From Candidatus Aenigmatarchaeota archaeon (GTDB lineage: Archaea; Aenigmatarchaeota; Aenigmatarchaeia; QMZP01; QMZT01): a stretch of 64,000 bases of DNA. The translations under genes were made by a program, and so were the position numbers. The stretch's first letter is position 1; each line of letters starts with the position of its first letter. Shown piece by piece: positions 37,243 through 59,965 of this stretch. The notes beneath the pieces are model-generated. The model was not told where the DNA came from. It saw only the letters and a list, made by a program, of their open reading frames with translations, and did no database searches. The DNA lies in assembly GCA_011772645.1 (NCBI GenBank), contig WVZE01000036.1, positions 48,726-112,725 on the forward strand. Direction: 5' to 3'.

Positions 37243-37659
37243 ATGATAGAGACTAAAACTCTCTCTTTCAGGACGAGATCCGGGACGGACATAATAGACA
37301 TCACAAAGGAGGTCTCGGAAGCGATCGGGAAATCGAAAATAAAATCAGGGATCGTCTCCGTGTTCGTGACGGGCTCGACTGCCTCGATCTCCACGGTGGA
37401 GTATGAACCGAACCTTATAAATGATATCAAGAGAGCTCTCGAAAAGATCGCGCCCGAAAGAGGGGATTACGAGCACCACAAGACCTGGGGGGACGACAAC
37501 GGGTCTGCGCACGTCCGCGCGACATTAATGAAACCGGGGATAAGCGTGCCTTTCGAAAACCGTAAGCTGTTGCTTGGAACTTGGCAGAATATCATAATTT
37601 TGGACTTTGATACAAAACCGAGAGAAAGGGAAATCATTTTGACTATAATTGGCGAGTGA
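37243..37659 (+). CDS. YjbQ/UPF0047-family protein (secondary thiamine-phosphate synthase-like)
   Basis: 138-aa ORF with the TGSTASIST..E.EP and WGDDNGSAHVRA motifs. Confidence 0.75.
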   Translation: MIETKTLSFRTRSGTDIIDITKEVSEAIGKSKIKSGIVSVFVTGSTASISTVEYEPNLINDIKRALEKIAPERGDYEHHKTWGDDNGSAHVRATLMKPGISVPFENRKLLLGTWQNIIILDFDTKPREREIILTIIGE

Positions 37660-38788
37660 GCGTGTATTTATAGGATTTACCCGACTTGAATTTTTTTACT
37701 CTATTCTTTCTCATCAACTGTTGCAGATGATGATATGTAGTCCACAAATTTATATTAACTATCTCCCTTAATTCATATACCGTTTTTGGACCTCTGGTTA
37801 AAGATTCTAGTATAATGTCTTTTGTTTTGAATTTCCTTCTTTGTTTCCATTTTCTATTATTTATCCTTATTATATTTTTGATTTCATTAAGCTTACGGCC
37901 AATATGCATATCGGAAAATTTAATTATTAGTTCTTCACAATCTTTAGCAAATTTTTTCAAAGAATTTGCACTAAGGTATAATGCGTAGTGATCCCCTTTC
38001 ATTTTTCCCTTTCTTTTAAATATGGAAACTGTACATTGGTAATTTAATGATTCCATTATACTTTTCAGGTCGTATGCAAAATTTCTGTTCGAAGAAAGAA
38101 GTCTTACTCTACCAGAAACGTTACCATCATCATGTAAAACTGCTAACAAAGTCGCTATTTTAACCTGTTTATCCCCATTCATTATTTTTTTAGGTATTCT
38201 GCATTTAGCACTCAAATACGTATCTACGTTGAGATATCTTGTAATGACTTCAGAAAAAAGAGCCGGAATATAGCAACCTCTTTTATATTCTTTAATCTCA
38301 TAACCGCCAAAAACATTTTGAATCAATCTTTTAAACCGTTCTAATCCAATTTTACCTTTCTGATAATAAAAGAAATTCTTTTTAGCGACTGACCCATCAC
38401 ACATCATATGAATTGCAATAGAGATGAATTCTGGTGTAACGATAACAGGCAATTTTGGTTTATAACCATATAATCTTCCATACGTAGATACGTAACTTTT
38501 TATATATTTCTCAATTTCTGATAGTTTGAAATTTATCTTTTTAGCTATTTCGTAAATAACCCACGCTGGTATATATTCTGCCTTCTTTTTATAATACCAA
38601 ACAATTCTGTAATCACTGGTTATGTTCTTACTGTATAATTTGGATTTTTTCTGCAAAAACAATGCTATCTTACCTGTGGTTGAAAAGTATTCCTCTGATT
38701 TTTTAAAGAACTTTTCCTTAAAATTTTTCTCTAGTTTAATAGAAGTCAAATCAAGTGGAAATTCCCACCAATGTATATGTTTTGTCAT
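37643..38788 (-). CDS. double-LAGLIDADG homing-endonuclease-like protein with C-terminal winged-helix domain (AT-rich island)
   Basis: Two LAGLIDADG-like motifs about 100 aa apart (IAIHMMCDGSV and LLAVLHDDGNVSG). The C-terminus LTRGPKTVYELREIV...HLQQLMRKNRVKK is wHTH-like. Confidence 0.45.
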   Translation of the reverse strand: MTKHIHWWEFPLDLTSIKLEKNFKEKFFKKSEEYFSTTGKIALFLQKKSKLYSKNITSDYRIVWYYKKKAEYIPAWVIYEIAKKINFKLSEIEKYIKSYVSTYGRLYGYKPKLPVIVTPEFISIAIHMMCDGSVAKKNFFYYQKGKIGLERFKRLIQNVFGGYEIKEYKRGCYIPALFSEVITRYLNVDTYLSAKCRIPKKIMNGDKQVKIATLLAVLHDDGNVSGRVRLLSSNRNFAYDLKSIMESLNYQCTVSIFKRKGKMKGDHYALYLSANSLKKFAKDCEELIIKFSDMHIGRKLNEIKNIIRINNRKWKQRRKFKTKDIILESLTRGPKTVYELREIVNINLWTTYHHLQQLMRKNRVKKFKSGKSYKYTLTRQL

Positions 38789-41839: not shown

Positions 41840-42031
41840 ATGAAATTTAAAGATTATGTTAAAGTGCTGGGACCGGCAGCTCTGGGTATTGGAGCTTTGG
41901 GTATTGGAGCTTTATATTTAACGAGCAGAAAAGGCAGGCCAGGAACATCTGGTGAAAATCCTGGGCACGCGAAAAATAATAACATCACTGATGAACGTTG
42001 GATTTATGGAGAGGAAGGGGAATCATGGTAG
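41840..42031 (+). CDS. small membrane protein (paralog pair member)
   Basis: MKFKDYVKVLGPAALGIGALGIGALYL. It shares a conserved upstream motif with the next gene. Confidence 0.3.
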   Translation: MKFKDYVKVLGPAALGIGALGIGALYLTSRKGRPGTSGENPGHAKNNNITDERWIYGEEGESW

Positions 42032-42097: not shown

Positions 42098-42250
42098 ATG
42101 AAATATTTACTGAAAAACTTAAGAGGAAGTAAAGTTGCTCTTTACGGACTTGGTCTGGTGGCAGGAGGCGTAGTTTTTAAAATAGCACAGAAAAATCTTA
42201 AAAAATATCCTGTAAATCCGAAGAAGGCAAGAAAGAATGGCGCCTACTAG
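42098..42250 (+). CDS. small membrane protein (paralog pair member)
   Basis: MKYLLKNLRGSKVALYGLGLVAGGVVF. Upstream, GATTTTTAAAACTTACT is conserved with the previous gene. Confidence 0.3.
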   Translation: MKYLLKNLRGSKVALYGLGLVAGGVVFKIAQKNLKKYPVNPKKARKNGAY

Positions 42251-45200
42251 TAATATTTATTCTCTATCCTTGCGAATTTCAGGTAGATCAGGGCAGCGAG
42301 TATCAGGAGGAATACAACCGCGATCGGGGAGAGCCCGGGGAATTCAGGGACGAAGACCGTGGTCACCCATACGCTGTCCTTGTCCTTAAGATCCGAGTCC
42401 ACGAAAGAGCTTGCGGTCACTGTCACATTATATCTAAGCTGTTCGGTGTACAAAATCCTGACTTTAATTTTTCTCTCTTCCTGGGGGTTCAGGTCTATAT
42501 CAGCCTCTGGCTGGTTGTTTATCGCGAATATGGCATTTGAAGGTTCCAGCTTCAAATGAACCGTGTCAAACTTCAGCTGTATGTTCCTCACAGCAACGTC
42601 CAGGGTGTTAAACTTCCCTATCATGGGCATCACGGATTCCGCCTCGAAATTCGCCAGGGGATGCTCGTACATTGTAAGTGAGTAGTAACCTGATGGCGGG
42701 TTCCTCTCCGTTTCTGATGTGTAGGAGTTCAACGTGTAGGAATAGTAATCGATTTTTGTATCGTTTGGGTAAGGTCCCAGCGTTACGACACACATGTTGT
42801 CAAGCAAACACGTCAATGTATCCCATGTCCCGGGTTCGAATCTTGGGTGATAGACTCTGTAGTTAATGGTCATGTTGAGCAGATCCCTGGTCATGTTCAT
42901 GAGTGTTATCGAAACATTCCTGTCCGCACCCGTCTTCCCTCTGTCCCTTATAATGTTGCCGAACTGGTCTATCACGTAAAGTTCCGCCAGCCCGGGGATA
43001 AAGATCGTGGTGTTGGTGTCGTATGTTGTCTTGACCTCCCAGTTGCCTGCGTTGTCCTTGGCGAGCGAGCGGAAGTAGAATCTGTAATTGTTTATCCCGC
43101 CCAGGGGGCTTCCTGCCTCTTCATATGCGTTGAATAATGTGAAAGTCTCTGTCGTACAACTAAACAGCTCCTGCCATGAAGTTAAATTCACGGTATCATT
43201 GTACCGGAATTCTATCTTGTAGCAGTCAATGCCGCTTCCGCTGTCGCTCCCTCCCCAGTAGAGATCGAAAGCGTTTGACTGGGTATAGAAGGGGAGAGTG
43301 GAAACAAGGGAAACAGGCGGTGTGGTGTCGTTCGTGTACTGCCAGCCCGTGTTTATGTATCCTGTCCCTCTCCCGGCCTCGTCGTAAAGGAATGCGTACA
43401 CGCTGTAACTCTTCTGACTGCTTCCTGTGTCTACGGTCCATATCTCGTCAACGCTCGCTCCCGTACAGCTGCCCGAGCAGGAAACCGATTGGATTGTCAG
43501 GTAATTATAGTTCCACATGTTGTCCGTGATGATTCCCGTATCAACATCAACGCTGGATTTTATCTCGTTACCGCTCGCGCATATTTCACCCCAGTTGCAT
43601 CCGCAGCTTTCCGGTGCGCAGCCGCTTGTGAATGTGATGTATTGTCTTGAGGGGGTTGAGACCGAATCAGTGTGCTGTATTCTATGGGTTGTTGTCCCTG
43701 AATTGACCCAGCAGATTTGGTTGGACGTGTCCTCGTAATCACACCCTGAAACCGAGTAGGAAACAAAGGTGGGGTTGGTCTTGTCGATTAATACCTGGGT
43801 TGATTGCGTGCTTTCCTGGTTGCCCGCGTTGTCCGTTGAGCGGTATCTCACGTAGTTGGTTCCTTCGTCCGAAACAATGAAGGAAGAAGAATACGGTATG
43901 GAGGGCGAGCAAGTGTCTGTGGTGTCCACGCAGTACGTTGTGTCAGCGCATCCCGAGCCTCCCGGGTCCGAGCAGGTCAGGGTGACCTGGACGTTCGTTG
44001 TGTACCAGTTGTTCCAGCCCATGGTTCCCGAAAGACTGATGGAAGTGGAGGGAGGCGTCGACTCCAGAATTATGGAATCGCTGTCCTGAATCACGCTGAG
44101 CAGATTGTTCCTAACTTCGTAATAGACTGTTTTTGTTCCGTCGCCCGCTGTCAAAGTCCAGGCTTTCGTTGGCGCACATGCCTCCCAGGTGGTCCAGCTA
44201 CCTCCCTCGTTTCTGTATCTGCAGTCCTTAATGCCCGGACCGACTGGGTCTGAATAGGCCAAATTAAGTGTTACGGAGTTCGAATTCGTATAGGTATCGT
44301 CATTGTTTATAAATATTGATGCCGTCATGCCTACCACTCCTATCAGGTACTGCCAGCCCGTGTCTATGTATCCGGTTTCTCTCCCGGCCTCGTCGTAGAG
44401 GAATGCGTATACGTTATAACTCTTCTGGTTGTTTCCTGTATTTACGGTCCATATCTCGTCAACGCTCGCTCCCGTACAGATGCCCGAGCAGGAAACCGAT
44501 TGGATTGTCAGGTAATCATCGTTCCACATGTGGCTTGTCGTGACTCCCGTATCGACATCAACGCTGGATTTTATCTCGTTTCCTGAGGCGCAGAGCTCGA
44601 TGTTGTTACATCCGCAGTTGTTTGGTGCGCAGCCGCTTGCGAATGCGATGTATTGTCTTGAGGGGGTTGAGACCGAATCAGTGTGCTGTATCTCGTGGGT
44701 TGTTATTGTCCCCGGATTGACCCAGCATGTTTGGGTGGTTGCGTTTTCGTAGTCGCATCCTGAAACCGAGTAGGAAACAAAGGTGGGGTTGGTCTTGTCG
44801 ATTAATACCTGGGTTGATTTCGTGCTTTCCTGGTTGCCCGCGTTGTCCGTTGAGCGGTATCTCACGTAGTTGGTTCCCTCAGGGGAAACGGCGAATGTGG
44901 ATGAATATGATATGGAGGGGGAGCATGTGTTTGTTGAATCTATGCAGTATCTTGTGAAATCGCAGTCAGAACCTCCTGAATCCGAGCAGGTAAGGGTGAC
45001 CTGGACGTCCGTTGTGTACCAGTTGTTCCAGCCCATGGTACCCGAAAGGCTGATGGAAGTGGAGGGGTCTGTTGTGTCCACCATAAGACGGGAGGAAACA
45101 TCCGTGTCGTAGTTCCCAGCCGAATCCTCGACCCACAAACACAGCCAGTCATTACGGTTGGTGTTTACCGTTATAACCGAACTTGTTGTTGAAAATGTGT

Positions 45201-48200
45201 AGCTTGATTTTGAACCGGAACACGTCCCGTCTGAGTCGAAGTAATACCACTTGGTTGATATGCAGCCGGAGCCTCCTGAATCCGAGCAGGAGAGTGTTAT
45301 ATCGTCTGAATTCACCCATGTTGTCGATTCGCCGGTTATGCTTGCAGTTGGATTTGTCTTGTCCACCCTGAATTCGACAGGGCTTGAAAATCCCGTGTTG
45401 CCCACGTTGTCCCTCGCCGCTGCGCACACCCACCTGTGGCTGGAGATGGTCTGGGGGGAGGCTAGGGTGTAGGAAGAGTAGGTGGAGGGGCAGCTCCCCG
45501 GGTTGGATGCGTACGTTACCAATCTGTAAGAACCTGCGTTGCAGCCGGAGCCTCCCGGGTCAGAGCAGGAAACGCTCGCCGTGGCGTCTGTGTTCTGCCA
45601 GGAAGCGGGAGCTCCCGTTACGGAGACCGAAGGGGAGGTTTTGTCCACTGTGAACGAATGGTCCGTTCCGTCGAATCTCAGAGACCATCCTCCGTTGGGC
45701 TCGAAGTCTGACCAGAGCCCGCAATAATCGACTGTCCAAGTCCCTCCCGGATCGCCCGATTGTATGGTGTAGGAGAAGGTCACACTAGTTCCCCAGTTGT
45801 TGAAGTATATTATGGAACCGCCCGGCTTTGCGAGTCTGCATTCGGAAATTATGGTGAATCCTGATGGGCTTCTTGAAACGCCTGAGAGGGAGATCTGGAT
45901 GGTGTCCCCTACTGAGTAATAGCCTGAGGGATAGGTGTATGAACTCCAAGTTCCGGTTACCTGCGTTGAGGTTCCTCCTTTCGTGCAGGAGGTGTAGCTG
46001 TTCGAACACACGCGATTGGAGTCGCATTTGTAGGAACCCGTCCTCCCGCAGGTGGAGTCTACCCAGATTCTCTGGTTACCAACACCCGGGCTGGGGGCGG
46101 CGCAGTCCAAAAGACATCCTCCCTGAGCGTAACAGTTCTCGCTGGAGTCGCAGATACCTGGTAGACCTATGCACGGGTCTCCGCATATCAGGCCTTGGCA
46201 TGCCCCTGTTTCCAAACGGAAGTTATTGCTCTGTTTTGTGGACTCCTGGTTGCCCACGCTGTCTCTCGAGTAGAAGCATACAACCTTGTTGCAGATCTGG
46301 CCTGCCGGGCATGTCACGCTTCCCGACGTTCCCGTGGTGAATCCTGTTGTCCCGCAGGACCCTCCCTGGTTGATAACCCTGTAATAAGTGGATGAACATC
46401 CCGAACCTCCTGAATCAGAGCAGGTCAGGGTGAAGGAAACGGAAGTTGTGGAATAACTCCCGCCGTTGGGTGATATGGATGTGGTCGGACCTGATACATC
46501 CCTCCATTCGCCGCCAACACACTGGGAACCCGCCATTCCCGGACGAGCAGCTCCTTCGCTGTAACATGCACTTTGCCAAACACAATCATTCGCGTTGTTG
46601 CAGCATGCATCATCACTCGAACTGGAAGTGCAGGCGTATCCGTCGCACTGCCTTGTTCTCCTGTATTCGTTCGAATCATCCCCGCAGCAGGTTGTTGCGT
46701 CCACTTCTCCTCCTATGTTCCAGCGGTTTGAACCGGCGATAGCTCCGCATTGCGTGCTTCCCGCGTCTCCTCCCTGCCACGTCCCTGCGTTGCAGTAGTT
46801 CCTGCTGGGGATGCTTCCTCTTGTTGAGGTTGATGAATAACAGGTGGAGTAGTAGACGCAGTCGTTGTTCGCGTTACAGCAGGCGTCGTCCGAGGATGAG
46901 GAGGAATAGGTCGAATCTGTTCCAGCGACTCTCGTTCTCCTGTTTTCACCCGAATCGTCGCCGCAACATGCGGTCGCTGCTACTTCGCCGCCAATTGCCC
47001 AGAATCCACCGCCGCAACCGCATAAATATGAATTGTAATCACCATTGGTCCGAAAAACTGCATCATAACATGCAGTGTAACCTCCGGCACACCAATCCTC
47101 TCCGGCATCGTCTCCGCAACAATCTCCCACTGAATCATCCCAGCAATTGCTTTCTCCTCCAGAACAGGTTCCCTGTGTCCCGCTCACTTCGCACTCGCAG
47201 GCACTCTGAACATTGTCAGGTTCCCTGGCAGGACCAGACCTATCACAACCATTTGCATTAATACCATCACAATAACCTTGAGTCTGATATCCGAATCCAC
47301 CGTTATTGTAAGCATTATCGGCTAGGTCATTACTTGTACATGCCCAAGCGGTGTTACATAGGTAACCAGTTCCCCTTATTGTATAAGGATGGCTGCTTGT
47401 ATCACAGCATACCCCACTGGAGCATTCATCATTAGCCGCCCATATTCCGTTTGATTGACATATAATGGCACCGCTTAAAGCAGTTTGACCACTTGAATAA
47501 CATACACCATTATAAACGCAATCACTACTTGAACTGCAGCAAGCATCGTCTGAACTGCTACTGCTACATCCGGAATCACATTGTCTTGTCCTTCTATTCT
47601 CTCCGGAGTCGTCACCGCAGCAGGTTGTTGCTGCCACTTCTCCTCCTATGTTCCAGCGGTTTGAACCGGCGATAGCTCCGCATTGCGTGCTTCCCGCGTC
47701 TCCTCCCTGCCACGTCCCTGCGTTGCAGTAGTTCCTGCTGGGGATGCTTCCCCTTGTTGAGGTTGATGAATAACAGGTGGAGTAGTAGACGCAGTCGCTG
47801 CTCGCATCACAGCAGGCGTCGTCCGAACTTGAGGAGGAATAGGTCGAATCTGTTCCCGCGACTCTTGTCCTCCTGTATTCGCCCGAATCGTCACCACAAC
47901 ATGTGGTCGCGGCGACTTCTCCTCCTATGTTCCACCTTCCCGTTGCCTCGCATGCATCGCAGTAAGCTTGACCTGCATCAGAATCATACCACGTACCGCT
48001 GCCGCAGTAAGCATCGTCTGAACGGCATGCCCCCGAAGAATAACAGGTGTTTGAATAGACGCAGTCACCGCCCGCATTACAACAGGCGTCGTCCGAACTT
48101 GAGGAGGAACACCAGGAATTGCACACCCTTGTTCTCCTGTATTCGCCCGAATCATCGCCGCAGCAGACACTCCCGGCGACCTCGCCTCCTATGTTCCAGC

Positions 48201-49992
48201 GGTTTGAACCGGCGATAGCTCCGCATTGCGTGCTTCCCGCGTCTCCACCCTGCCACGTCCCTGCATTGCAGTAAGCCTTGTTGGGGACTGCCGGGGGGGA
48301 GGTTCCTCCGGATGATGTGCACGCATCATTGTATGTGCAATCTGTGTTTGCATTACAGCAGGTTGTAATTCCGTCGTTGTAACCTGAAGGGGCGTCGGTT
48401 CCGCCAGTTTCTGTCCTTCTGTACTCGCCCGAATCGTCACCGCAGCAGTTTGTCGCTGCTACCTCACCGCCGATTGCCCAATTACCACCACCACAACTGC
48501 ATAAATATGAATTGTAATCACCATTGGTCCGAAAAACTGCATCATAACATGCAGTGTAACCTCCGGCACACCAATCCTCTCCGGAGTCGTCGCCGCAACA
48601 ATCTCCTACTGACTCATCCCAGCAATTGCTTTCCCCTCCAGAACAGGTTCCCTGGGTTCCGCTCGCTTCACATTCGCAGGCGCTCTGGTAATTGTCAGGC
48701 TCTCTGGCAACGCCCGAGACGTCACAACTCCCGCCGCCGTCACAGTATCCCTGGGTCTCGTACCCGAACCCGCCATTGTTATAAGCGTTATTGGTTTGCT
48801 CGGCGCTCGTACACGCCCAAGCGGTGTTGCATGGTGTGTTCGCCTGGATGCCGCAGGTGCTTGTCAGAACATCTCCTGCTGGAGCAGTTACAGGATACTG
48901 CTCATAATAACTTGTAGCTGCCGTGTCGCAAACGCCGCTCCCGTCGCATTCAGAGTAACGAATATATCCTGAACAACTTCCGGCAGTACAAAAATAATTG
49001 GTATTATCATCACACGAGAGTATTTCTGAAGTTGCATCAACGCTGCTTGCAGAATAACAGGCTTTGTAAGCGGGCGTGTTGTAAATGGCGCGTGCGCATT
49101 CGCCTAATCCGTCACAAACGCCCGTTCCCCCATCAATTGCGCACTGGGATGCAATGCAGGGACCTCCCCCGAAACATCTGTTGCCCGGGTCTGTCCCGGC
49201 CGGCGCCGGGTCGCAGTCTGGGTAGGCGTCGTAACATCCGTAACAAAGCGCGCAGTTGTCTGCCCTGCCATCGGAATAAACCCCACAGGCCCCGCCCGTG
49301 CAGGTGCCTGTCAGGCAGTCAGTTGTGCTGCACTCGCTGCGAGGATCGGTTCCGTCAGGTACGTTTTCGCATAATACATCAGTATCATAACACCCTTGAC
49401 AGATCCCGCAGTTAGCCTTCCTTCCGTCAGAATAGGCAGCACATCCTCCACCAGCAGCACAACTACCTGTTCTGCATTGCGATGTATCACAATCATTATT
49501 TGGGTCTGTTCCTGCATTTGCATCCTGACAACCACCAGCCCCATTACAAACCCTGCAGGTGGCAGGGCAATCATCGTTTGGATCTGTTCCTGCAGGAATA
49601 AAACTCCCGCTGCTGTCGCAGCAGGTAGTTCCCGGGGTGCATGCTGTACCGCAGATGCCATTCACACGGGTCCCGGAACAACATCTGCAGTCAGTAGGAG
49701 CGGAATTACCATCCAAAATACAACACACGCCCCTCCCGCTACATGTTTTGCAAAATGAGGCACCAGGACAAGTTGCGGCTTCTTCGTAGCAATTACTGGT
49801 ATCCTCCCCGGGTGGACAGAATCTTGTTGATGCACGCCGGCAAACTATTAAAATATCGCCAGTGGAGCAATAATTTGAGCCGCAATTAGCCGCACTAGTA
49901 CAACCATCCAGACAAGCAGCGCTAACCCCGTAACTCAAAACATTTAAAAGGATAACCGAATAAAACACCGCGATGACACACTTTGCCTTCAT
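42247..49992 (-). CDS. giant (2581 aa) secreted cysteine-rich surface protein with Ig-like repeats and C-terminal EFPGL-TM-basic sorting-signal-like tail
   Basis: Signal peptide. The N-terminal ~1000 aa are Cys-rich with at least 6 CCGDDSGEYRRTR repeat units. It has a conserved ~170-aa CGLWSDF module and two near-identical ~250-aa repeats. Ig-like units carry Y.STDNAGN.E. The C-terminus reads VPEFPGLSPIAVVFLLILAALIYLKFARIENKYY. Confidence 0.7.
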   Translation of the reverse strand: MKAKCVIAVFYSVILLNVLSYGVSAACLDGCTSAANCGSNYCSTGDILIVCRRASTRFCPPGEDTSNCYEEAATCPGASFCKTCSGRGVCCILDGNSAPTDCRCCSGTRVNGICGTACTPGTTCCDSSGSFIPAGTDPNDDCPATCRVCNGAGGCQDANAGTDPNNDCDTSQCRTGSCAAGGGCAAYSDGRKANCGICQGCYDTDVLCENVPDGTDPRSECSTTDCLTGTCTGGACGVYSDGRADNCALCYGCYDAYPDCDPAPAGTDPGNRCFGGGPCIASQCAIDGGTGVCDGLGECARAIYNTPAYKACYSASSVDATSEILSCDDNTNYFCTAGSCSGYIRYSECDGSGVCDTAATSYYEQYPVTAPAGDVLTSTCGIQANTPCNTAWACTSAEQTNNAYNNGGFGYETQGYCDGGGSCDVSGVAREPDNYQSACECEASGTQGTCSGGESNCWDESVGDCCGDDSGEDWCAGGYTACYDAVFRTNGDYNSYLCSCGGGNWAIGGEVAATNCCGDDSGEYRRTETGGTDAPSGYNDGITTCCNANTDCTYNDACTSSGGTSPPAVPNKAYCNAGTWQGGDAGSTQCGAIAGSNRWNIGGEVAGSVCCGDDSGEYRRTRVCNSWCSSSSSDDACCNAGGDCVYSNTCYSSGACRSDDAYCGSGTWYDSDAGQAYCDACEATGRWNIGGEVAATTCCGDDSGEYRRTRVAGTDSTYSSSSSDDACCDASSDCVYYSTCYSSTSTRGSIPSRNYCNAGTWQGGDAGSTQCGAIAGSNRWNIGGEVAATTCCGDDSGENRRTRQCDSGCSSSSSDDACCSSSSDCVYNGVCYSSGQTALSGAIICQSNGIWAANDECSSGVCCDTSSHPYTIRGTGYLCNTAWACTSNDLADNAYNNGGFGYQTQGYCDGINANGCDRSGPAREPDNVQSACECEVSGTQGTCSGGESNCWDDSVGDCCGDDAGEDWCAGGYTACYDAVFRTNGDYNSYLCGCGGGFWAIGGEVAATACCGDDSGENRRTRVAGTDSTYSSSSSDDACCNANNDCVYYSTCYSSTSTRGSIPSRNYCNAGTWQGGDAGSTQCGAIAGSNRWNIGGEVDATTCCGDDSNEYRRTRQCDGYACTSSSSDDACCNNANDCVWQSACYSEGAARPGMAGSQCVGGEWRDVSGPTTSISPNGGSYSTTSVSFTLTCSDSGGSGCSSTYYRVINQGGSCGTTGFTTGTSGSVTCPAGQICNKVVCFYSRDSVGNQESTKQSNNFRLETGACQGLICGDPCIGLPGICDSSENCYAQGGCLLDCAAPSPGVGNQRIWVDSTCGRTGSYKCDSNRVCSNSYTSCTKGGTSTQVTGTWSSYTYPSGYYSVGDTIQISLSGVSRSPSGFTIISECRLAKPGGSIIYFNNWGTSVTFSYTIQSGDPGGTWTVDYCGLWSDFEPNGGWSLRFDGTDHSFTVDKTSPSVSVTGAPASWQNTDATASVSCSDPGGSGCNAGSYRLVTYASNPGSCPSTYSSYTLASPQTISSHRWVCAAARDNVGNTGFSSPVEFRVDKTNPTASITGESTTWVNSDDITLSCSDSGGSGCISTKWYYFDSDGTCSGSKSSYTFSTTSSVITVNTNRNDWLCLWVEDSAGNYDTDVSSRLMVDTTDPSTSISLSGTMGWNNWYTTDVQVTLTCSDSGGSDCDFTRYCIDSTNTCSPSISYSSTFAVSPEGTNYVRYRSTDNAGNQESTKSTQVLIDKTNPTFVSYSVSGCDYENATTQTCWVNPGTITTHEIQHTDSVSTPSRQYIAFASGCAPNNCGCNNIELCASGNEIKSSVDVDTGVTTSHMWNDDYLTIQSVSCSGICTGASVDEIWTVNTGNNQKSYNVYAFLYDEAGRETGYIDTGWQYLIGVVGMTASIFINNDDTYTNSNSVTLNLAYSDPVGPGIKDCRYRNEGGSWTTWEACAPTKAWTLTAGDGTKTVYYEVRNNLLSVIQDSDSIILESTPPSTSISLSGTMGWNNWYTTNVQVTLTCSDPGGSGCADTTYCVDTTDTCSPSIPYSSSFIVSDEGTNYVRYRSTDNAGNQESTQSTQVLIDKTNPTFVSYSVSGCDYEDTSNQICWVNSGTTTHRIQHTDSVSTPSRQYITFTSGCAPESCGCNWGEICASGNEIKSSVDVDTGIITDNMWNYNYLTIQSVSCSGSCTGASVDEIWTVDTGSSQKSYSVYAFLYDEAGRGTGYINTGWQYTNDTTPPVSLVSTLPFYTQSNAFDLYWGGSDSGSGIDCYKIEFRYNDTVNLTSWQELFSCTTETFTLFNAYEEAGSPLGGINNYRFYFRSLAKDNAGNWEVKTTYDTNTTIFIPGLAELYVIDQFGNIIRDRGKTGADRNVSITLMNMTRDLLNMTINYRVYHPRFEPGTWDTLTCLLDNMCVVTLGPYPNDTKIDYYSYTLNSYTSETERNPPSGYYSLTMYEHPLANFEAESVMPMIGKFNTLDVAVRNIQLKFDTVHLKLEPSNAIFAINNQPEADIDLNPQEERKIKVRILYTEQLRYNVTVTASSFVDSDLKDKDSVWVTTVFVPEFPGLSPIAVVFLLILAALIYLKFARIENKYY

Positions 49993-50019
49993 TAATTAAT
50001 AATTATTGATTTCTATTAA

Positions 50020-53000
50020 TTAATCCTTTATTTTGACGAGTTTTACATAGATAAGAACTGATAGTAACAACAAAAATACTATTGCAGGCCAGTTCAGGCC
50101 CGGGAAGTCCGCGGGCGTCGCGATTTTTATCTCCAGCCAGTCGCTGTCCGCAAGCTGGGGGTCGGTTAGGGAATTCGCATTCACGGTCAGATTGAAATTC
50201 CCCAAAGATCTCGGGTATATTCTTGCGATCACCTCTCTGTATTCCTGGGGGTTCATCTGCAGATCCAGGGTTCGGTTTCCCGTTTCCGCGAACATCGCCT
50301 CCTGCATGTTCAGTGAGAGGCGAATCGTGTCCGCTATCAGCTGGGAATTTCTGACCAGAATTTTTATAATTCCCCCTCTTCCTATGGTCATGTGGAATTT
50401 CTCATCCACAGCGAACTTTACCATGGTCAGGAAGATAGTGGTGTACGTGTCGAATCCTGTCTTTGTTTCCTGGTTTCCCGCGTTGTCCCTGGCAAGCGAG
50501 CGGAAGTAGAAGGTGTAGCCGTCCGGGTTTGAACCTGCCGCCTGCTCAGCGTCGAATATCGTGCTTGTTTGTTTCGTGCATTCCCCATCGGAAAAATTTA
50601 TGTTCATAACAGGACTTTCCGGTTCGCTCTGCGGCCTGTACTTGTACTGTATAATGTAGCAATCCAAACCGCTCTCGTCATCCGTCCCGTTCCATGAGAG
50701 GTTAAAAGACTTTTGGGCCATGTACGTTGATAGCAACCGAACTCTGGAGGTTGGGGAGACCTTGTCAACCTTGAATTCAACAGGGCTTGAGAATCCCTCG
50801 TTTTCCGCTCTATCCTTTGCTGCCCCGCACACCCAGACGTGGCTCGAAATGGTCTGGGGGGAGGGAAGGGTGTAGGAGGCGTAGTCAGAGGGACAGCTTC
50901 CGGGGTTTGAATCGTAGGTTATCAATCTGTAAGAACCTGCGTTGCAGCCGGAGCCTCCCGGGTCAGAGCAGGAAACGCTCGCCGTGGCGTCTGTATTCTG
51001 CCAGAGTGGGGCAACATCGTCCACAGAGACTATTGGGGGGATTTTGTCAACCTTGAATTCGACAGGGCTTGAGAATCCCTCGTTGCCCATGTTATCCCTC
51101 GCCGCTGCGCACACCCACCTGTGGCTGGATATTGTCTGGGGGGAGGGAAGGGTGTAGGAGGCGTAGTCAGAGGGACAGCTTCCGGGGTTTGAATCGTATG
51201 TCAAAAGCATGTAGGTTGAGGGGTCGCATGGGCCTGTATTGCTCACGCATGTCACGTTCGCAGTGGCGTCTGTGTTTTGCCAGGAAGCGGGAGCCCCTGT
51301 CACGGAAACTGTCACCTGGATCTCATCCACTGTGAACGTCCGATCCGTACCGTCAAATTCGAGAACCCATCCGGTGTTGGACTCGAAGTCTGACCAGAGT
51401 CCGCAATAATCAACTGTCCATGTTCCGAGCGGATCCGCATCCTGTATGGTGTAGGGGAAGGTCACACTTGTTCCCCAGTTGTTGAAGTATATTGAAGATC
51501 CGCTCGGCTTTACGAGTCTGCATTCCGAGAGTATGGTGAAACCCGATGGCGAGTTCGAAACCCCGTTCAGTCTTATGTTTATGGTCTGGCCTGCATAGTA
51601 TGTTCCGCTCGGAGGAACGTAAGAAGTCCAGTCCCCTGTCACCTGTCTTGGAATTCCCCCCATCGTGCATGAGGTGTAGCTGTTGGAGCACACGTGCCGT
51701 GGACCGCACTTGTAGGAGCCCGTCCTCCCGCAGTTCGAATCTACCCATCTTCTTTCAGCATTGGGTCCTGTTGAAGGGACGGAACAATCCAGGAAGCATC
51801 CTCCGCCTGAATAACATTCATCCTCTCCGTTGCAGATTCCTCCCGGGCATGGCGTTCCGCACGGCTGTTGGTAGCAAACATTCGCTGTTATGCCGTCGCT
51901 CGAGCCCACGTCGCTCCACAGGCCCGAATTGCTCCTGGCCCTGACATTGAAATAATAGGTTTCGCCGTTGGAAAGGCTGAGACCGCTTCTGGTGACCTCC
52001 CTTAGCAACCCTCTTGAGGTCCAGCCGACTTCGCTGTTCCACCCGGAATTCGGGTATCTGGCGGTTCCTATTGCGTATTGATATTCTGCTATCCCCGAGC
52101 TTGAAGTGGACTGTGTCCAGGTCGCATGGAGAGTTGTAAGCGAGGAGGTGTAATCACCGTCATCCGTCACGACCGGTGTTGTGGGCGTCCCGTCATCCAC
52201 CATCAGCCGGGAGGAAACATCCGTGTCGTAGTTCCCAGCCGAATCCTCGACCCACAGGCACAGCCAGTCGTTATGAACTCCTGTTATGGTAAGCGTGTTG
52301 CTCGTTGTAGAGAGGTAGTAGGAGGATTTGGAAGAGGAACACGTTCCGTCTGAGTCGAAGTAATACCATCTGGTTGATAAGCAGCCTGAATCTCCGGTAT
52401 CGGTGCAAACGAGGTTTACGGTATCCGATGTAACCCACACCGTTGACTCCCCGGTTATGTCAGCCACCGGGTTTATCTTATCAATCCTGAATTCGACAGG
52501 GTTTGAAACCCCTGTGTTGCCTGCGTTGTCCCTCGCCGCTGCGCACACCCAGACGTGGCTGGAAATGGTCTGGGGGGAGGAGAGGGTGTAGGAGGCGTAG
52601 TCAGAGGGACAGCTTCCGGGGTTGGATGCGTACGTTCTCAGTCTATACGTCCCTGCATCGCAGCCGGAGCCTCCTGAATCCGAACAGGAAACGCTCGCCG
52701 TGGCGTCTGTATTCTGCCAGGAAGCTGGAGCTCCCGTTACGGAGACCGAAGGGGAGGTTTTGTCAATCCTTACCCGGGTTGATCTCGTGCTTTCCTGGTT
52801 GCCAGCGTTGTCCGTTGAGTAGTATCTCACGTAGCGTGTTCCCTCGCTGGAAATTGTGAACTGGGAAGAATAAACTGTTGAGGGCGAGCAAGTGTTTGAG
52901 GTGTCCACGCAGTATCTCGTGGCTGAACAGCCAGAACCACCCTGTCCGTCCGAGCAGGTCAGGGTTACATCGACGTTTGTCACATACCAACCGCTCAAAC

Positions 53001-53901
53001 CCTGGGTCCCGGAAAGCGTGATGGTGGTGATCGGAGGATCTGTATCTTCCGGGCAAAGGACCGGGTCAGTCTCGCACCCAGGCAAGCCGGCACTGCAGGT
53101 CTCGGTGAAGGCACAGGTCTGATCGGTAGCCCAGAGACCATATACCGTGCTTCCCGTACACTGAGCCGAATTCCCTGAACAATACTGGTTGTTAGTCTGC
53201 CTTTCCAGCGTGGCTCCGCACCCGTTAGAATCCCCTCCCACGCACCTGTATTCATTCCAAGTGTCGCAAACCTCGGATGTGGATTCATAGCAACCGGAAA
53301 GCGTTCCTGTTGTGCAGCAGGGACCTGACCAACATTGAGAGGTGATGCAGACTCCTCCGCAGCATGACCCACAACATGAAGTCGAAGCCGAACATGTGCA
53401 TCCTATGTTAGGAGGTTTTCTGCAAACAAGCCCGCACGCAGCCCAGCAAGTATCGGTGCCGCAGCAACCCGTCTCATCCATCAAACACCCGCCATCTCCA
53501 TGGGTATGTGACGCCGTTCCCTGCCAGCTGGGCCCGGAAGCCTGTATGCCAGCGCAATCGCATTCGTTCCTTCCCTCCCAGCTGCACGTCCAGATGCTGC
53601 ACCTGGTTGCGCTCGGGCAATCCCTCCGGGCGAGAGTGTTACCGCAAAATATCCCTCCTTCGCCACACCATGCTCCGCACGTATCCGTTCCCTGGTGGTC
53701 CCAGTCACAGTCACACCAGGTACAGCCGTTGCTAATGCAGTCATCCTTCGAATCTTCGTAATCTCCGCAGTTTTTGTCCGCGGGTCCCCTGCATGTAAAG
53801 ACCCTGTGTATCGTGGCAGAAGCCGAATAAGCTGTTGTGAATATAAAAAGGAGGATCACCACCGATATAACAAAAAATTTGTAAATGTCTTTTTTCATCA
53901 A
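50020..53901 (-). CDS. giant (1293 aa) paralogous cysteine-rich surface protein with DFPGL-TM-basic C-terminal tail
   Basis: Signal peptide and a Cys-rich N-domain. There are three internal copies of the GAPASWQNTDATA...SNPGSCPSDYASYTL.SPQTISSH.WVC unit. A ~200-aa block is about 85-90% identical to the 2581-aa neighbour. The C-terminus reads ATPADFPGLNWPAIVFLLLLSVLIYVKLVKIKD. Confidence 0.7.
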   Translation of the reverse strand: MMKKDIYKFFVISVVILLFIFTTAYSASATIHRVFTCRGPADKNCGDYEDSKDDCISNGCTWCDCDWDHQGTDTCGAWCGEGGIFCGNTLARRDCPSATRCSIWTCSWEGRNECDCAGIQASGPSWQGTASHTHGDGGCLMDETGCCGTDTCWAACGLVCRKPPNIGCTCSASTSCCGSCCGGVCITSQCWSGPCCTTGTLSGCYESTSEVCDTWNEYRCVGGDSNGCGATLERQTNNQYCSGNSAQCTGSTVYGLWATDQTCAFTETCSAGLPGCETDPVLCPEDTDPPITTITLSGTQGLSGWYVTNVDVTLTCSDGQGGSGCSATRYCVDTSNTCSPSTVYSSQFTISSEGTRYVRYYSTDNAGNQESTRSTRVRIDKTSPSVSVTGAPASWQNTDATASVSCSDSGGSGCDAGTYRLRTYASNPGSCPSDYASYTLSSPQTISSHVWVCAAARDNAGNTGVSNPVEFRIDKINPVADITGESTVWVTSDTVNLVCTDTGDSGCLSTRWYYFDSDGTCSSSKSSYYLSTTSNTLTITGVHNDWLCLWVEDSAGNYDTDVSSRLMVDDGTPTTPVVTDDGDYTSSLTTLHATWTQSTSSSGIAEYQYAIGTARYPNSGWNSEVGWTSRGLLREVTRSGLSLSNGETYYFNVRARSNSGLWSDVGSSDGITANVCYQQPCGTPCPGGICNGEDECYSGGGCFLDCSVPSTGPNAERRWVDSNCGRTGSYKCGPRHVCSNSYTSCTMGGIPRQVTGDWTSYVPPSGTYYAGQTINIRLNGVSNSPSGFTILSECRLVKPSGSSIYFNNWGTSVTFPYTIQDADPLGTWTVDYCGLWSDFESNTGWVLEFDGTDRTFTVDEIQVTVSVTGAPASWQNTDATANVTCVSNTGPCDPSTYMLLTYDSNPGSCPSDYASYTLPSPQTISSHRWVCAAARDNMGNEGFSSPVEFKVDKIPPIVSVDDVAPLWQNTDATASVSCSDPGGSGCNAGSYRLITYDSNPGSCPSDYASYTLPSPQTISSHVWVCGAAKDRAENEGFSSPVEFKVDKVSPTSRVRLLSTYMAQKSFNLSWNGTDDESGLDCYIIQYKYRPQSEPESPVMNINFSDGECTKQTSTIFDAEQAAGSNPDGYTFYFRSLARDNAGNQETKTGFDTYTTIFLTMVKFAVDEKFHMTIGRGGIIKILVRNSQLIADTIRLSLNMQEAMFAETGNRTLDLQMNPQEYREVIARIYPRSLGNFNLTVNANSLTDPQLADSDWLEIKIATPADFPGLNWPAIVFLLLLSVLIYVKLVKIKD

Positions 53902-53930
53902 TTATATAATTGGTTATGGGTAATTATTAG

Positions 53931-56900
53931 TTAAACCCTTCCTTTAACCACAAGTTTCAGGTAGATCAGGACAGCCAGAACCAGAAGCATACACACTCCA
54001 AACCAGTTCAGGCCAGGGAAGTCCGCGGGCATGAACACCACGATTCTCAGGCTATCGAAATCGTCAAGCATGGGGTCCGCTATGAGGGAATTCGCGTTGA
54101 GGTTAAGGGTGTATCCATCGAGACCGGAAGGGTATATCCTTGCGTAAACCACTCTCTCCTCCTGGGGATTGAGGTCAACAATGAGTGACCGGTTTCCGCT
54201 CTCTATGAACCTCGCATACTCGGAATCCAGTTCCAGATAAACACTGTCGAATCTGGTCTGGATGTTTCGAACTTCTATTCCTATGATGTCCGATCTCCCC
54301 ACCCTTGAGTAGAGCTCCTCCTTCGGGACGAAATTCGCCAGGGGATGGGTGTACATGGTGAAGTGGTAGAAGAACGGTTCGGGAGGGTTCCTCTCATCCT
54401 GAGAGCCGTCTATCGTCTGTGCGTAGGCAAAATAGCTGATCCGCATCTTATTTTTATATCTGCCTGCGGTGAGGTTGACCGAGTAAACCATGTTCTGCGT
54501 GTCCGTTGTGATGCCGCCAGTCAGGGGGTCCGAGCCCGGGGTGTGGTTGTAGTAGGTAAGGCTAATGTTGAGCAATCCCACGCTGGGAGTCCTGTTCGTT
54601 GCGATTATCATAACGATCCTGTCCGCTGATACCTTGCCCTCGTTGGGGATTAAGAATCCGCTGGATAAATCCACGGCGTAGACGTTCGTCAGATCCGGGA
54701 TGAAGATCGTGGTGTTGGTGTCGTAAGTTGTTTTAATTTCCTGGTTGCCAGCGATATCACTCGCAAGCGAACGGAAGTAGAATACGTACTCGTTAACGTT
54801 CGGCACCCCTGCCGCTGCCTGCGCATCAAACCCTGTCTCAGTTTCCAGAGTGCAGCTCTCCCCGTTAACCAAAAGGTCTGTCCAGTCCGTAAGTGTAAGA
54901 GTGTCGTTGTATTTGTATTGTATTGTGTAACAATACAAACCGCTCTCGTTGTCACCTCCTGTCCATGATATGTTGAACCTTGTCTCGGTCACGAATCCCG
55001 GCAGGGGGAGGACGTTAGAATAGGGCGGCTCGTCATCAATGCCCACGTTATTCACTGCCAAGCTGTTTTCGTTTCCTATCGTGTCGTTCGCCTTCACCCT
55101 GAAGGTGTATAAGCCGTCCTTCACGGAATTCACGCTAAACAGGGATGTCCAGGTTGAGTCCTGCCTGCTCATTGGAACCCACTGACCGGAACCTGTTGAG
55201 TTCTCCCACCTGTAGACAACTTCTGAAACCCCTGATCCCTGGTCCGTTACGGTTGCGTTAACCGTGAAGTCCGAGTTGTACCATGTATTTGGAGTGGGGA
55301 TATGAACGGTGACGTCCGGGGGAACCACATCGATAACGATGTCGACCGTTACCTCGCTTTCGTGACCCAGCGTGTCGTTCGCTTTGACCCTTACCGTGTA
55401 ATTCCCGTCAGCCAGTCCTGTTATGTCAAAATTCGCTGTAAAGAAATCCGTCCCTCCCCCTCTTGACATGGAAACCCAAGATCCCGTTCCTGTTGAGTTC
55501 TCCCACCTGTAAGCCACGGACTCCACGTTCGACCATGCATCCGTTACGGTTGCGTTTACCAGGAAGTCTGACTTGTGAAGGCTGTTCGGGAGCGGGGAGT
55601 TTATCGTTATAACTGGAGGGGTCCTGTCAACCGTGAAAGTCTGGTTGGTTCCGTCAAACCTCAGTTCCCACCCCCCGTTAGCCAGGAAATCCGACCAGAG
55701 CCCGCAGTAGTCCAGCGTCCAAACGCCTTCCGGGTCTGTTGCCTGTATGGTGTAGGAGAAAACCAGATTTCCAGACCCCCAGTTGTTGAAAAAGATAACA
55801 TTCCCGTTTGATTTAAACAGCATGCATTCTGTAAGTATGGTGAAGGCTAAGGGCGTGTTTGAGATCCCGCTAATCGTTATCTGGAAAGCTTCGTTCTCAT
55901 CATAATAACCGGATGGGGATGTGTAAGAACTCCAGTCCCCTGTCACCTGCATTGAACTCCCTCCGAGTGTGCAGGAATTATAGCTGTTGGAACACACTTG
56001 TTGCGGACCGCACTTGTAGGAGCCCGTTCTCCCGCAGTTCGAATTTTCCCATCTCCTTTCTTCACCGGGTCCCAGGGAAGGGGCCGAACAATCCAGGAGG
56101 CATCCACCGTCCGGGTAACAGTTCCCCTCAGGGCCATCGCACACGCCGGTAATTACGAGGCATGTTTGTCCGCACTGCCTGTTCAGGCACGCATCCGTTT
56201 TCAGGATGAAGACGTTGCTTTGTTTGACCGCTTCCTGGTTGCCCGCGTTGTCCGTGGAGTAAAAACATACCCTTTTGTAGCAGGTCTGTCCGAACGGGCA
56301 GGTCACGTCCCCTGAACTCCCCTGTGTGAATCCGGTGGATCCGCATGCCTGGCCGTCATCTATTATCTTGTAATAGGAATTGTCGCAGCCCGATCCTCCA
56401 GTGTCCGTGCATGTTAAAGTAAAGCTGGTTTCGTTGCTTCCCGTGAAGTTCCCTCCGTTCGGGTTTATGTTGGTGACCGGAGGGGTTGTGTCCTCCCAAA
56501 CCCCGTTAACGCAAGAGGCCCCTGTCACGGTCGGGTGGTTCGCTCCGTTGTTGTAGCATACGTCATTCAGAACGCAGTCGCTCGTCTGATCGCAGCAGGA
56601 GTCATCGCCCGAACTTGAACTGCAGGCGTATCCGTCGCACTGCCTTGTTCGAACGTATTCGTTCGAATCATCACCGCAGCAGTTCGCTATACCTCCTATG
56701 TTGTATCTCCCGCCTCCGAGACATGCCCCGCATGTGTTCGGGTTTGTGTCGGGATCGTAGGTTTTCTGTGTGCAGGTATCAAGCCCCGGACAAGAGTCTG
56801 CTGAATCATCAGCGTAGTATTCCCTGAACATGCAGCCAGCTCCTCCGGGGCACGCATTCGAATCCATGCAGCCCTCTGTCCCGCTGGAGCCGGGGGTCGT

Positions 56901-58502: not shown

Positions 58503-58567
58503 CTGTTAAATAGTTGTCAAGCCTGATTAATAAATTCAACTTTTTTAATTATTAAAAACAATCAGGC

Positions 58568-59965
58568 CTAACGGGTTCTCCTTCTTATGGATGTGAATAT
58601 CGAATAGAAAAACACGAAGAAGGGAAGGATCTCGAGTCTCCCCAGCAACATGCAGACCATGAGAACGGATTTTCCGAGAGGGTTCATTCCCGCGATGTCA
58701 ATCGTTGTCAATCCGACTGTCCCCTCCGCAGAGGCGGAGACAAAGAACGAATCTATTGGGGTGTAGCCCATGAAGCTAAGAACGAGAGTCGAAACAACGA
58801 GGATCAGTATGTATATGAAGGAGAATATCGAGATTATGGTTAAATCCTCCTCCCTTATCACCTTTCTTCCCAGCTTGAAGGGAATGACAGCAGAGGAGGG
58901 ATAGGAAATCTTCCTGCTCAGCCAGGAGACCGCTTTCCCGAGGATCCCGACCCTGACGAGTTTCAGCCCGCCTGCGGTCGATCCCGCGAACCCTCCCACT
59001 ATCATGAGTATGGGAAGCAATATCTTGGAGAGCTCTGGGTAGGTGGAAACCAGGGTGAAACCGCTCCCTGTCAGGGCTGAGAACGTCTGGAAAATCCCTA
59101 TCCTGAAGGGCTCGGGGCTCAGGATGAAGGAGATGGAGACCAGTATCGAGAAGATCAATATTATCACCCAGAACAAACGGACCTCGCTGTTCCTCAGGTA
59201 TTCGATGAACTTCCTCTTGAAGAGCTTATCGTGAATGAAGAAGGAGGTCGCTCCGAGAACCATCATCAAAATCATAACAGTTTCTATTAACGGGTTGCCG
59301 TAGGCTCCGATGGACTCGTTCTTGACAGAGAATCCTCCGGTAGCGATGGAGGTGAACGTGTGATTGAAAGAATCGAACAGGGGCATGCCCGCGAGCGCGA
59401 AGAGCAGGATCCCCACAGCGGTGTAGATCCCGTAGATTATGAATATCCTCTTCACGGTGGAGTAAACGCCGGCCTCTATCCTCTGTGGATGTCCTTCTGC
59501 CTTGTATATGTAATAGGAAGACATCCCCGGGGAGGACAGCAGCAAAAGGAAGATAACGAGTATCCCCACCCCTCCAATCCACTGGGTGAGCGACCGCCAG
59601 AAAAGAACCGAGTGAGGAAGGCTCTCCGGGTTCACGGTGGTGAGGCCTGTGGTTGTGAAGCCCGAAACTGATTCGAAGAGGGAATCCATCGGACTCAGAT
59701 GGTCGAGGTATGGGATCGCTCCAAAGAGGGAAACCACGATGAAGGTCAGGCTCGCCAGAACCATTGCGGAGCTGAGATCCAGGGGTTCCCTTTCGAATTT
59801 TTTGTAAAGGACTACGCCCACCGCGAAAGAGATCACCGCTCCCAGGAGGAAGGGGATGTAAACGTCCTCGGCAAAAACCAGGCTCACTGCAAGAGGGAAA
59901 AGCATCAGTATCGCTAATATACCCAACAACAGGCCGAGGTACGAAAGAACTGACTTGAAATTCAT
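58568..59965 (-). CDS. trkH: TrkH/KtrB-family potassium transporter
   Basis: Repeated M-P-M pore motifs (GFTTTGLT, GSGFT, GLTT) and polytopic membrane topology. Confidence 0.85.
   Translation of the reverse strand: MNFKSVLSYLGLLLGILAILMLFPLAVSLVFAEDVYIPFLLGAVISFAVGVVLYKKFEREPLDLSSAMVLASLTFIVVSLFGAIPYLDHLSPMDSLFESVSGFTTTGLTTVNPESLPHSVLFWRSLTQWIGGVGILVIFLLLLSSPGMSSYYIYKAEGHPQRIEAGVYSTVKRIFIIYGIYTAVGILLFALAGMPLFDSFNHTFTSIATGGFSVKNESIGAYGNPLIETVMILMMVLGATSFFIHDKLFKRKFIEYLRNSEVRLFWVIILIFSILVSISFILSPEPFRIGIFQTFSALTGSGFTLVSTYPELSKILLPILMIVGGFAGSTAGGLKLVRVGILGKAVSWLSRKISYPSSAVIPFKLGRKVIREEDLTIISIFSFIYILILVVSTLVLSFMGYTPIDSFFVSASAEGTVGLTTIDIAGMNPLGKSVLMVCMLLGRLEILPFFVFFYSIFTSIRRRTR

Follow-up and report, generated by a model that had tools for sequence, protein, structure and literature searches.

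Three tandem genes for giant modular proteins in a Candidatus Aenigmatarchaeota archaeon, with duplicated modules that have probably been patched by short-tract gene conversion

Gene models and repeated modules

The stretch of DNA analysed here, called the window throughout, comprises 64,000 nt of contig WVZE01000036.1 from a Candidatus Aenigmatarchaeota archaeon (NCBI GenBank assembly GCA_011772645.1). Between positions 42247 and 58502, the window contains three consecutive open reading frames (ORFs) on the minus strand, which are separated by spacers of 27-32 nt. These ORFs, here named genes A, B and C, encode large proteins with modules that recur within and between the genes. It is likely that they are tandem paralogues of modular surface proteins, in which the duplicated modules have diverged and have been patched by short-tract, non-allelic gene conversion. 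The gene models are as follows:

53931-58502, minus strand: gene C, 1523 aa (NCBI GTN38_03640)
50020-53898, minus strand: gene B, 1292 aa from the ATG at 53898 (NCBI GTN38_03635)
42247-49992, minus strand: gene A, 2581 aa from the ATG at 49992 (NCBI GTN38_03630)

The ORF of gene B spans 50020-53901, with the ATG at 53898 as the most likely start. In the NCBI record GTN38_03630, gene A is annotated from a GTG at 49665, giving a protein of 2472 aa without a signal peptide. The deposited start is probably too far downstream, since the upstream ATG at 49992, which lies 27 nt past the stop of gene B, adds 109 residues that open with a typical signal peptide (MKAKCVIAVFYSVILLNVLSYGVSAA). Each of the three proteins is present under four identical NCBI accessions.

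All three proteins open with a hydrophobic segment resembling a signal peptide and end with the motif P-x-[DE]-F-P-G-L, followed by a single transmembrane (TM) helix and a basic tail. In the N-terminal halves, cysteine makes up 8-20% of the residues. These features suggest that A, B and C are anchored cell-surface proteins of the adhesin or envelope type. From the N- to the C-terminus, the modules are arranged as follows:

Gene C: signal peptide; Cys-rich N-terminal half; OmpL47-like module (aa 689-766); 185-aa block matching no family (aa 777-961); two Big_7 immunoglobulin-like (Ig) modules (aa 963-1160); C-terminal module with PADFPGL and TM anchor
Gene B: signal peptide; Cys-rich region; OmpL47-type module (aa 306-379); units u1 and u2; fn3-like module; 185-aa block; units u3 and u4; C-terminal anchor module
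Gene A: Cys-rich repeats; OmpL47-like modules; 185-aa block; units u1 and u2; two 250-aa blocks; C-terminal PEFPGL and TM anchor

The initial annotation had described this region as a set of repeats, and these were found at the same positions and far above chance. Between 40000 and 58000, 19 families of direct repeats were detected, and 20 exact direct repeats of at least 30 nt lie within 42247-58502. A second copy in the rest of the window was found for only two exact repeats of at least 25 nt (36 and 34 nt). A self-comparison by protein diagonal scan likewise reveals the paired blocks in A, the block common to A and B, three units in B and a dense network of Cys-rich repeats in A, and gene C belongs to the same repeat network. 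The main repeats and the associated features are:

44347-45096, minus strand: A block copy 1 (aa 1633-1882), made up of an OmpL47-type module and a Cys-containing module of ~150 aa that matches no family
43336-44082, minus strand: A block copy 2 (aa 1971-2219), with exact tracts of 61, 57 and 45 nt in common with copy 1
45058-45645, minus strand: A units u1 and u2 (aa 1450-1645), the ~196-aa block common to A and B
52177-52764, minus strand: B units u1 and u2 (aa 380-575), the counterpart of the A units u1 and u2
51049-51327, minus strand: B unit u3 (aa 859-951)
50767-51048, minus strand: B unit u4 (aa 952-1045)
46540-48831, minus strand: Cys-rich repeat region of A (aa 388-1151), with eight CCGDD motifs and units of ~90 aa in a higher-order repeat
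45539-45727, plus strand: shadow ORF of 62 aa that reads A u1 in antisense; its counterparts lie at 50942-51157 and 52622-52822

The copies are less alike than was first reported, when the blocks were called near-identical. The two A blocks, which had been put at ~90% identity, are 80% identical at the amino acid (aa) level and 84% at the nucleotide (nt) level, with 85% aa identity over the first 110 aa that had been quoted; their synonymous divergence (dS) is 0.41, and the ratio of nonsynonymous to synonymous divergence (dN/dS) is 0.30. For the block common to A and B, which had been put at 85-90%, the values are 79% aa and 78% nt identity (81% aa over the stretch quoted) with a dS of 0.71, and other copies reach a dS of 1.3. 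Similarity is highest between the Cys-rich units of A at aa 685-819 and 996-1130, which have 90% aa and 84% nt identity and an exact tract of 118 nt in common. Taken over all repeat pairs, aa identity is 72-90%, dS is 0.41-1.29 and dN/dS is 0.11-0.38 (Nei-Gojobori). Because of these values, the repeat blocks are best regarded as moderately old duplicates under purifying selection and not as recent copies. In addition, gene B had been credited with three further copies of the ~94-aa unit; it has three canonical copies in total (aa 380-473, 859-951 and 952-1045) and one divergent copy (aa 474-575). The three plus-strand shadow ORFs starting at 45539, 50942 and 52622 are present with the string that had been quoted for them. 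They carry ...QPEPP[GE]SEQETLAVASVFCQ..., the antisense of the motif WQNTDATASVSCSDxGGSGC, and can be regarded as a by-product of the repeat.

Short-tract exchange between the copies

When the copies were aligned by codon, stretches of fully identical codons were found flanked by positions at which different codons specify the same residue. The longest exact tract, of 118 nt, lies in the Cys-rich region of A (46701-46818 and 47634-47751), as does a tract of 86 nt (47020-47105 and 48499-48584), and a tract of 62 nt is common to three Cys units. Tracts of this kind are also found between genes, such as the 72 nt common to A u1 (45520-45591) and B u4 (50923-50994), and within gene B, where u4 (50852-50916) and u3 (51134-51198) have 65 nt in common. 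Overall, the putative conversion patches are 38-118 nt long when exact and up to ~230 nt long when nearly exact.

The clustering of identical codons was assessed by shuffling codon columns, and the longest run gave P=0.0095 for the A blocks, P=0.001 for the A/B block and P<0.0005 for the Cys repeats. A synonymous-only test was limited to conserved degenerate codons, which removes constraint as an explanation. In this test, clustering was found in both Cys pairs (P<0.0001) and in the A blocks (P=0.014; runs test P=0.023), and the runs test gave P=0.003 for the A/B block. Among conserved degenerate codons, uninterrupted identity over 27-42 codons has P<0.0001.

The individual units are also mosaic. 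Along A u1, the nearest copy switches from B u1 (identical over the first ~75 nt) to B u4 (identical over the next ~60 nt) and later to B u3. In a Sawyer-type permutation test on the four canonical units, several pairs reached P<=0.001, and the global P was <0.0002. The Cys units have mosaic nearest neighbors as well, with a Sawyer-type global P<=0.0002.

A related lineage, in which TrkH is 86% identical to that of the window, provides an outside reference. Its loci (L008, L009 and L011) are syntenic and contain an orthologue of gene C (66% identical), with more giant genes after it. The comparison took in seven canonical units, of which four are from the window and three from the relative. 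Units of one lineage have a nucleotide identity of 0.72-0.87, versus 0.62-0.72 for units of different lineages. In the C-terminal half, the units of the relative form one clade (neighbor-joining bootstrap 0.99), and its A u1 and B u4 (R_A_u1 and R_B_u4) have 96% identity there. The N-terminal half differs in that u3 of the window pairs with u3 of the relative (bootstrap 0.74). The N-terminal half of B u3 is thus still orthologous to the u3 of the relative, and its C-terminal half is homogenised with the other units of the window. Therefore, the duplication predates the split of the lineages, and the C-terminal halves became homogenised later, independently in each lineage. This pattern fits concerted evolution by partial, short-tract conversion. 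The 185-aa block has a comparable patch in the relative, where the B and C copies (RB and RC) are 96% identical over ~120 nt, and in the window, B is closest to C in the same sub-region.

The events that would lead to this state can be outlined. Duplication of modules within and between A, B and C gave rise to the repeated blocks, which are now at a dS of 0.4-1.3 and under purifying selection. Short-tract, non-allelic gene conversion has probably pasted patches of tens to ~200 nt between the copies. As a result, individual units are mosaic, and the units of one genome are more similar to each other than to their positional counterparts in a relative. The same homology could also allow unequal recombination with loss or fusion of entire modules, as may have happened in the B::A hybrid discussed below. 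The resulting proteins would be anchored on the cell surface, where they might mediate adhesion or contribute to the structure of the envelope. Of the initial proposal of recent gene conversion or repeat shuffling, the part that holds is the presence of short patches in old, diverged copies; recent homogenisation of whole blocks is not seen.

It is conceivable, although unlikely, that these are old duplicates between which no exchange has taken place, so that purifying selection alone would have produced the pattern and the high-identity patches would mark the most constrained residues. A dN/dS of 0.1-0.4 and a dS of 0.4-1.3 are found everywhere, the motifs WQNTDATA, DNAGNQEST and CCGDDSGE coincide with some of the identical tracts, and the 185-aa block has no significant synonymous clustering, all of which would be expected under selection alone. 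However, the tracts of identity take in synonymous positions, including the runs of 27-42 codons described above, and immediately beyond the tracts, the codons for CCGDDSGE differ at many synonymous positions. In addition, selection alone does not account for a nearest paralogue that switches along a unit or for units whose grouping follows the genome in one half and the position in the other half.

A number of observations weigh against gene conversion as the main cause. For the 185-aa block, synonymous clustering was not significant between A and B (P=0.16-0.73) or between B and C (P=0.23-0.71). A PHI-type test on 22 informative sites was also not significant (P=0.82); since clustered site patterns are plainly visible in the alignment, the Sawyer-type tests were preferred. 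The identity at block level is far below near-identical, and therefore most of the similarity would stem from old duplication and purifying selection and not from recent exchange. The exact tracts could be slightly exaggerated by bubble-popping or consensus calling in a short-read assembly, and the four identical NCBI accessions per protein may not be independent assemblies. The comparison covers one related lineage, the B-like and A-like genes of which are truncated in the retrievable loci. Finally, surface location and adhesion are read only from sequence features and weak fold matches.

Public assemblies and the B::A hybrid

The initial annotation had warned that the repeats could lead to collapsed assemblies, and public contigs bear this out, as they drop 7,119 nt, stop inside repeats or skip a paralogue. 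The clearest case is contig JABAOC010001901.1 (65 kb; L006/L012), which comes from the same population as the window (~11 single-nucleotide polymorphisms outside the repeats). This contig runs from gene B straight into gene A with exactly 7,119 nt omitted, and it encodes an in-frame hybrid of 1510 aa that joins B 1-379 to A 1450-2581. The sites of the window that correspond to the junction are:

52711-52764, minus strand: B side, with a 38-nt exact repeat (52727-52764) and two diagnostic sites after it
45592-45645, minus strand: A side, with the same 38-nt repeat at 45608-45645

The switch from B to A takes place just past the 38-nt repeat, between two diagnostic sites that lie 15 nt apart. 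The combination of bases at the junction is found in no copy of the window and in neither parental copy, which speaks for a junction supported by reads or for a conversion tract that is somewhat longer in that strain. A consensus artefact could possibly give the same combination. Since neither parental copy has these bases, recombination may possibly be ongoing at the locus, and real unequal recombination behind the 7,119-nt deletion is plausible.

Other contigs are interrupted at the repeats as well. The Logan contig L007 matches window positions 52735-61244 at 99.9% (8,503/8,510) and stops at 52735, within the 38-nt repeat and exactly at the last unique 31-mer before it. This break would be expected if both left flanks, that of A and that of B, and hence the intact arrangement, exist in sample ERR2564001. 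The 1.2-kb scaffold L003 matches 46408-47614 in all 1,170 of 1,170 aligned bases; it has an NN scaffold gap in the SSSSSDDACC repeat, and both of its ends lie in repeats. Contig L009 also ends inside repeats. Among the contigs of the related lineage, L008 has the same sequence as L009 and L011 until 10 nt before the stop of the C orthologue and then continues into a different paralogue, so that it skips a whole paralogue relative to L009 and L011.

In view of these records, it could be supposed that chimeric joins or a collapsed consensus from short-read metagenomes produced the repeat pattern and the mosaicism, all the more because the window itself comes from a metagenome-assembled genome (MAG). 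Such an origin is quite improbable. The contig that lacks 7,119 nt between repeats, the gapped scaffold, the contigs that stop inside repeats and the MAG contig of the related lineage that skips a gene all testify to assembly trouble at this locus, but the three ORFs of the window are intact, each with its own signal peptide and anchor, and for each of A, B and C, the identical protein has been deposited four times under separate accessions. L003 and L007 reproduce the window across several of the exact tracts, and the break of L007 would be the one expected with both left flanks present. Moreover, chimeric joins reshuffle flanks and cannot create lineage-specific clustering of units.

A dedicated system for variation had also been considered, as the initial annotation suggested possible antigenic or phase variation. 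As a target of a diversity-generating retroelement, the locus was rejected: the bases at mismatches are evenly spread (for example, A 42, C 35, T 22 and G 21, with 57% transitions), and there is no match to a reverse transcriptase among the window proteins scanned. An invertible promoter or slipped-strand switch was rejected as well, as Tandem Repeats Finder (TRF) gives only a 15-nt array of 2.4 copies at 41878-41913 and a protein-coding repeat of 264 nt. Programmed variation by cassettes, by a retroelement or by invertible or slipped-strand switches is highly improbable. Such variation could pay off in surface-exposed proteins of a probable episymbiont, and it could be read into the tandem paralogues with common modules, the in-frame B::A hybrid with junction bases of neither parent and a C orthologue that is only 66% identical while TrkH is 86% identical. 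However, no reverse transcriptase was matched when 33 proteins of the window, those of the giant genes and of 30 neighbors, were scanned with Pfam, and the mismatches have no adenine bias. Inverted repeats of at least 20 nt are absent from 40000-60500, simple-sequence tracts are absent as well, and all copies lie in complete genes and not in promoterless cassettes. In addition, dN/dS stays below 0.4 (0.1-0.4), and the only recombinase found (18825-20042) is 22 kb away.

Gene conversion between diverged modules thus remains the preferred reading, and it has practical consequences. The locus is mis-assembled or fragmented in several public records, and therefore gene counts, protein lengths and strain comparisons need long reads; the 1510-aa "protein" on JABAOC010001901.1 may not exist. 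It is doubtful that the B::A hybrid is a real variant in the population and that recombination of modules keeps yielding new in-frame surface combinations in an episymbiotic archaeon. Should the hybrid allele be real, these organisms would gain surface diversity from the shuffling of modules. With such recombination, the population would harbor a range of surface architectures, relevant to host attachment or virus evasion, and the locus would be an archaeal, recombination-based analogue of bacterial surface-antigen shuffling for which no dedicated enzyme is needed.

Module families, comparable systems and genomic surroundings

Few of the modules can be assigned to known families. The OmpL47-type barrel model NF047446 (cutoff 40 bits) is passed by A (95.2 bits, two stretches) and B (53.1 bits), and gene C scores 34.5 bits, below the cutoff. 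Gene C also matches Big_7 and Big_13 modules in the profile search. The full-length OmpL47 equivalog NF047441 (cutoff 250 bits) is not reached by any of the three (67.8, 38.2 and 21.3 bits). Module-by-module searches of Pfam and NCBIfam gave no family for the canonical unit, the 185-aa block, the 150-aa block or the Cys unit, and a sequence search of the PDB with the modules gave no matches. The 185-aa block is common to all three genes, and the 150-aa block is found in A only. In profile searches, no ATPase or other enzymatic domain was matched in A, B or C.

Thirteen modules of ~95 aa from the three genes align as one superfamily with the common pattern D..P..S...W..TD...LTCSD.GGSGC...VC...DNAGN...IDK. 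An AlphaFold (AF2) model of the canonical unit, built from this alignment, is all-beta (pLDDT 79.4, pTM 0.69). The best PDB matches of the model are weak (E>=0.013, TM about 0.6) and include a Deinococcus S-layer protein, the adhesins SraP and SiiE and PKD domains. Foldseek gave no match at E<=0.001 with the unit model; therefore, only a fold class can be assigned to the unit. A model of the 253-aa A block, made from a two-row alignment, reached a pLDDT of 31.7 and was not used.

A homology search with protein A found only 8 proteins in 5.8 billion clusters, and therefore no deep alignment is available for the modules of the giant genes. Among these proteins, only P0001, a C orthologue (67% identical), is orthologue-like. 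Scans of genome and metagenome contigs with protein A gave only distant Cys-repeat relatives (L001, L004 and L005) and the identical 1.2-kb scaffold L003, and no second full-length allele of gene A was found in these scans.

The ending P-x-[DE]-F-[PT]-G-L with a TM helix and a basic tail is kept in every paralogue and orthologue, including those of the related lineage. The motif is located at 42250-42350 (A), 50023-50120 (B) and 53934-54030 (C) in the window, and also at 1-204 of L002 and 17800-17931 of L008. This ending may be an unrecognised sorting signal of the archaeosortase type in Aenigmarchaeota. It resembles the PEF-CTERM and PGF-CTERM substrates of archaeosortases in its tripartite organisation, with the PEFPGL/PADFPGL motif, a hydrophobic helix and a basic tail. 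Unlike PEF-CTERM substrates, the proteins do not reach the cutoff of TIGR03024 (23 bits): gene A scores 18.3 bits (E 0.002), and B and C have no match. No archaeosortase gene was seen among the 33 window proteins in the Pfam scans.

Concerted evolution of repeat modules is well known from bacterial surface adhesins, such as the Ig-like repeats of Gram-positive cocci, the Lig and OmpL47-type proteins of Leptospira and SiiE/BIg. As in those adhesins, long secreted proteins are built here from beta-sandwich modules of ~90-100 aa that are duplicated within and between paralogues, intragenic and intergenic homologous exchange would keep the copies similar, and the repeats cause assembly errors and in-frame gain or loss of modules. 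In contrast, the host here is an archaeon of the DPANN group, and the copies, at 72-90% aa identity, have diverged much further than those of many bacterial adhesins, in which the repeats are typically near-perfect. A large Cys-rich region and a C-terminal TM anchor are present here, whereas bacterial adhesins have an LPXTG or outer-membrane anchor, and most of the modules match no curated family. With OmpL47-type barrel proteins, A and B have in common a module (...TLTCSDxGGSGC...DNAGNQE...) that scores above the NF047446 cutoff. Only this domain is common to both, and the proteins are not orthologues (21-68 bits with NF047441 versus a cutoff of 250).

Surface proteins of DPANN archaea are thought to mediate contact with the host, and their evolution has hardly been studied. 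The giant proteins may be compared with the SPEARE proteins of Nanohaloarchaeota, which are 8,800-9,400 aa long and have a VirB4/TraG-like ATPase domain, and of which one strain's protein lacks a 529-aa Ig-like/fibronectin-like stretch (PMC10266531). Both occur in DPANN archaea and combine a Sec signal peptide with an extracellular Ig-like/fibronectin-like array and a presumed role in contact with host cells, and in both, the module content differs between strains. When compared with the features of the SPEARE type, a signal peptide, Ig-like arrays and a membrane anchor are found here, with weak fold matches (best E 0.013). The proteins are 1,292-2,581 aa long instead of >5,000 aa, and no ATPase family is matched. 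In addition, the genes described here are three tandem paralogues from a family with ~8 detectable homologues in 5.8 billion clusters. They would thus be comparable in kind to other giant surface proteins of DPANN archaea but not homologous in architecture. The mechanism proposed is familiar from surface-protein families of bacteria and eukaryotes, and the novelty lies in the lineage and in a protein family that is otherwise uncharacterised. The locus would provide a quantified case of concerted evolution among surface-protein modules in a DPANN archaeon.

The genes around the cluster are archaeal housekeeping genes, encoding Nre, eIF2-alpha, Rpb7/RpoE, S15, SRP54, HisRS, an MBF1-like helix-turn-helix protein and TrkH. 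The top named matches of SRP54 (up to 89% identical) are from Candidatus Aenigmarchaeota, and the TrkH of the window is identical to GTN38_03645 of a Candidatus Aenigmarchaeota MAG. Judged from its gene content, the chromosome is archaeal. The GC content of the giant genes is 48-55% (51-55% from 44 kb on) versus 37-49% in the immediate neighbors, which probably reflects a composition rich in Gly, Ser, Cys and Asp rather than a foreign origin.

On the TrkH side, the cluster differs between the lineages. In L008, L009 and L011, a HAD-family hydrolase and an HhH-GPD glycosylase are encoded between TrkH and the first giant gene (11395-12780). In the window, TrkH abuts gene C directly (58503-58567), and an HhH-GPD gene is far off at 4556-5212. 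Therefore, the boundary of the giant-gene cluster has been rearranged between the lineages. Following the C orthologue, L008 contains at 17977-21397 a paralogue with a C-like signal peptide, a run of ten prolines, three divergent u2-type units and an A-like body. Module content differs strongly between the lineages despite conserved synteny.

Two genes from the giant-gene cluster, a protein of 381 aa (37643-38788) has a weak match to LAGLIDADG_3 and a C-terminal winged-helix domain (ArsR/TrmB-like). Elsewhere in the window, an exact direct repeat of 36 nt is present at 20784-20819 and 22058-22093 (TTTATAAAGCCATTTGACAAATTCATACAAGGCGCT, with the TATA-box-like TTTATAAA). The two copies flank a low-GC (34%) ORF without a family match (20903-21973), and a tyrosine-integrase gene (18825-20042) lies just upstream. 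The repeat pair may stem from the duplication of a promoter, or it may mark the ends of a small inserted element. Two more large ORFs have no Pfam match, one at 26205-29510 (1101 aa) and the other at 7762-10908 (1048 aa), which sits in a stretch of 35% GC, well under the average of the window.

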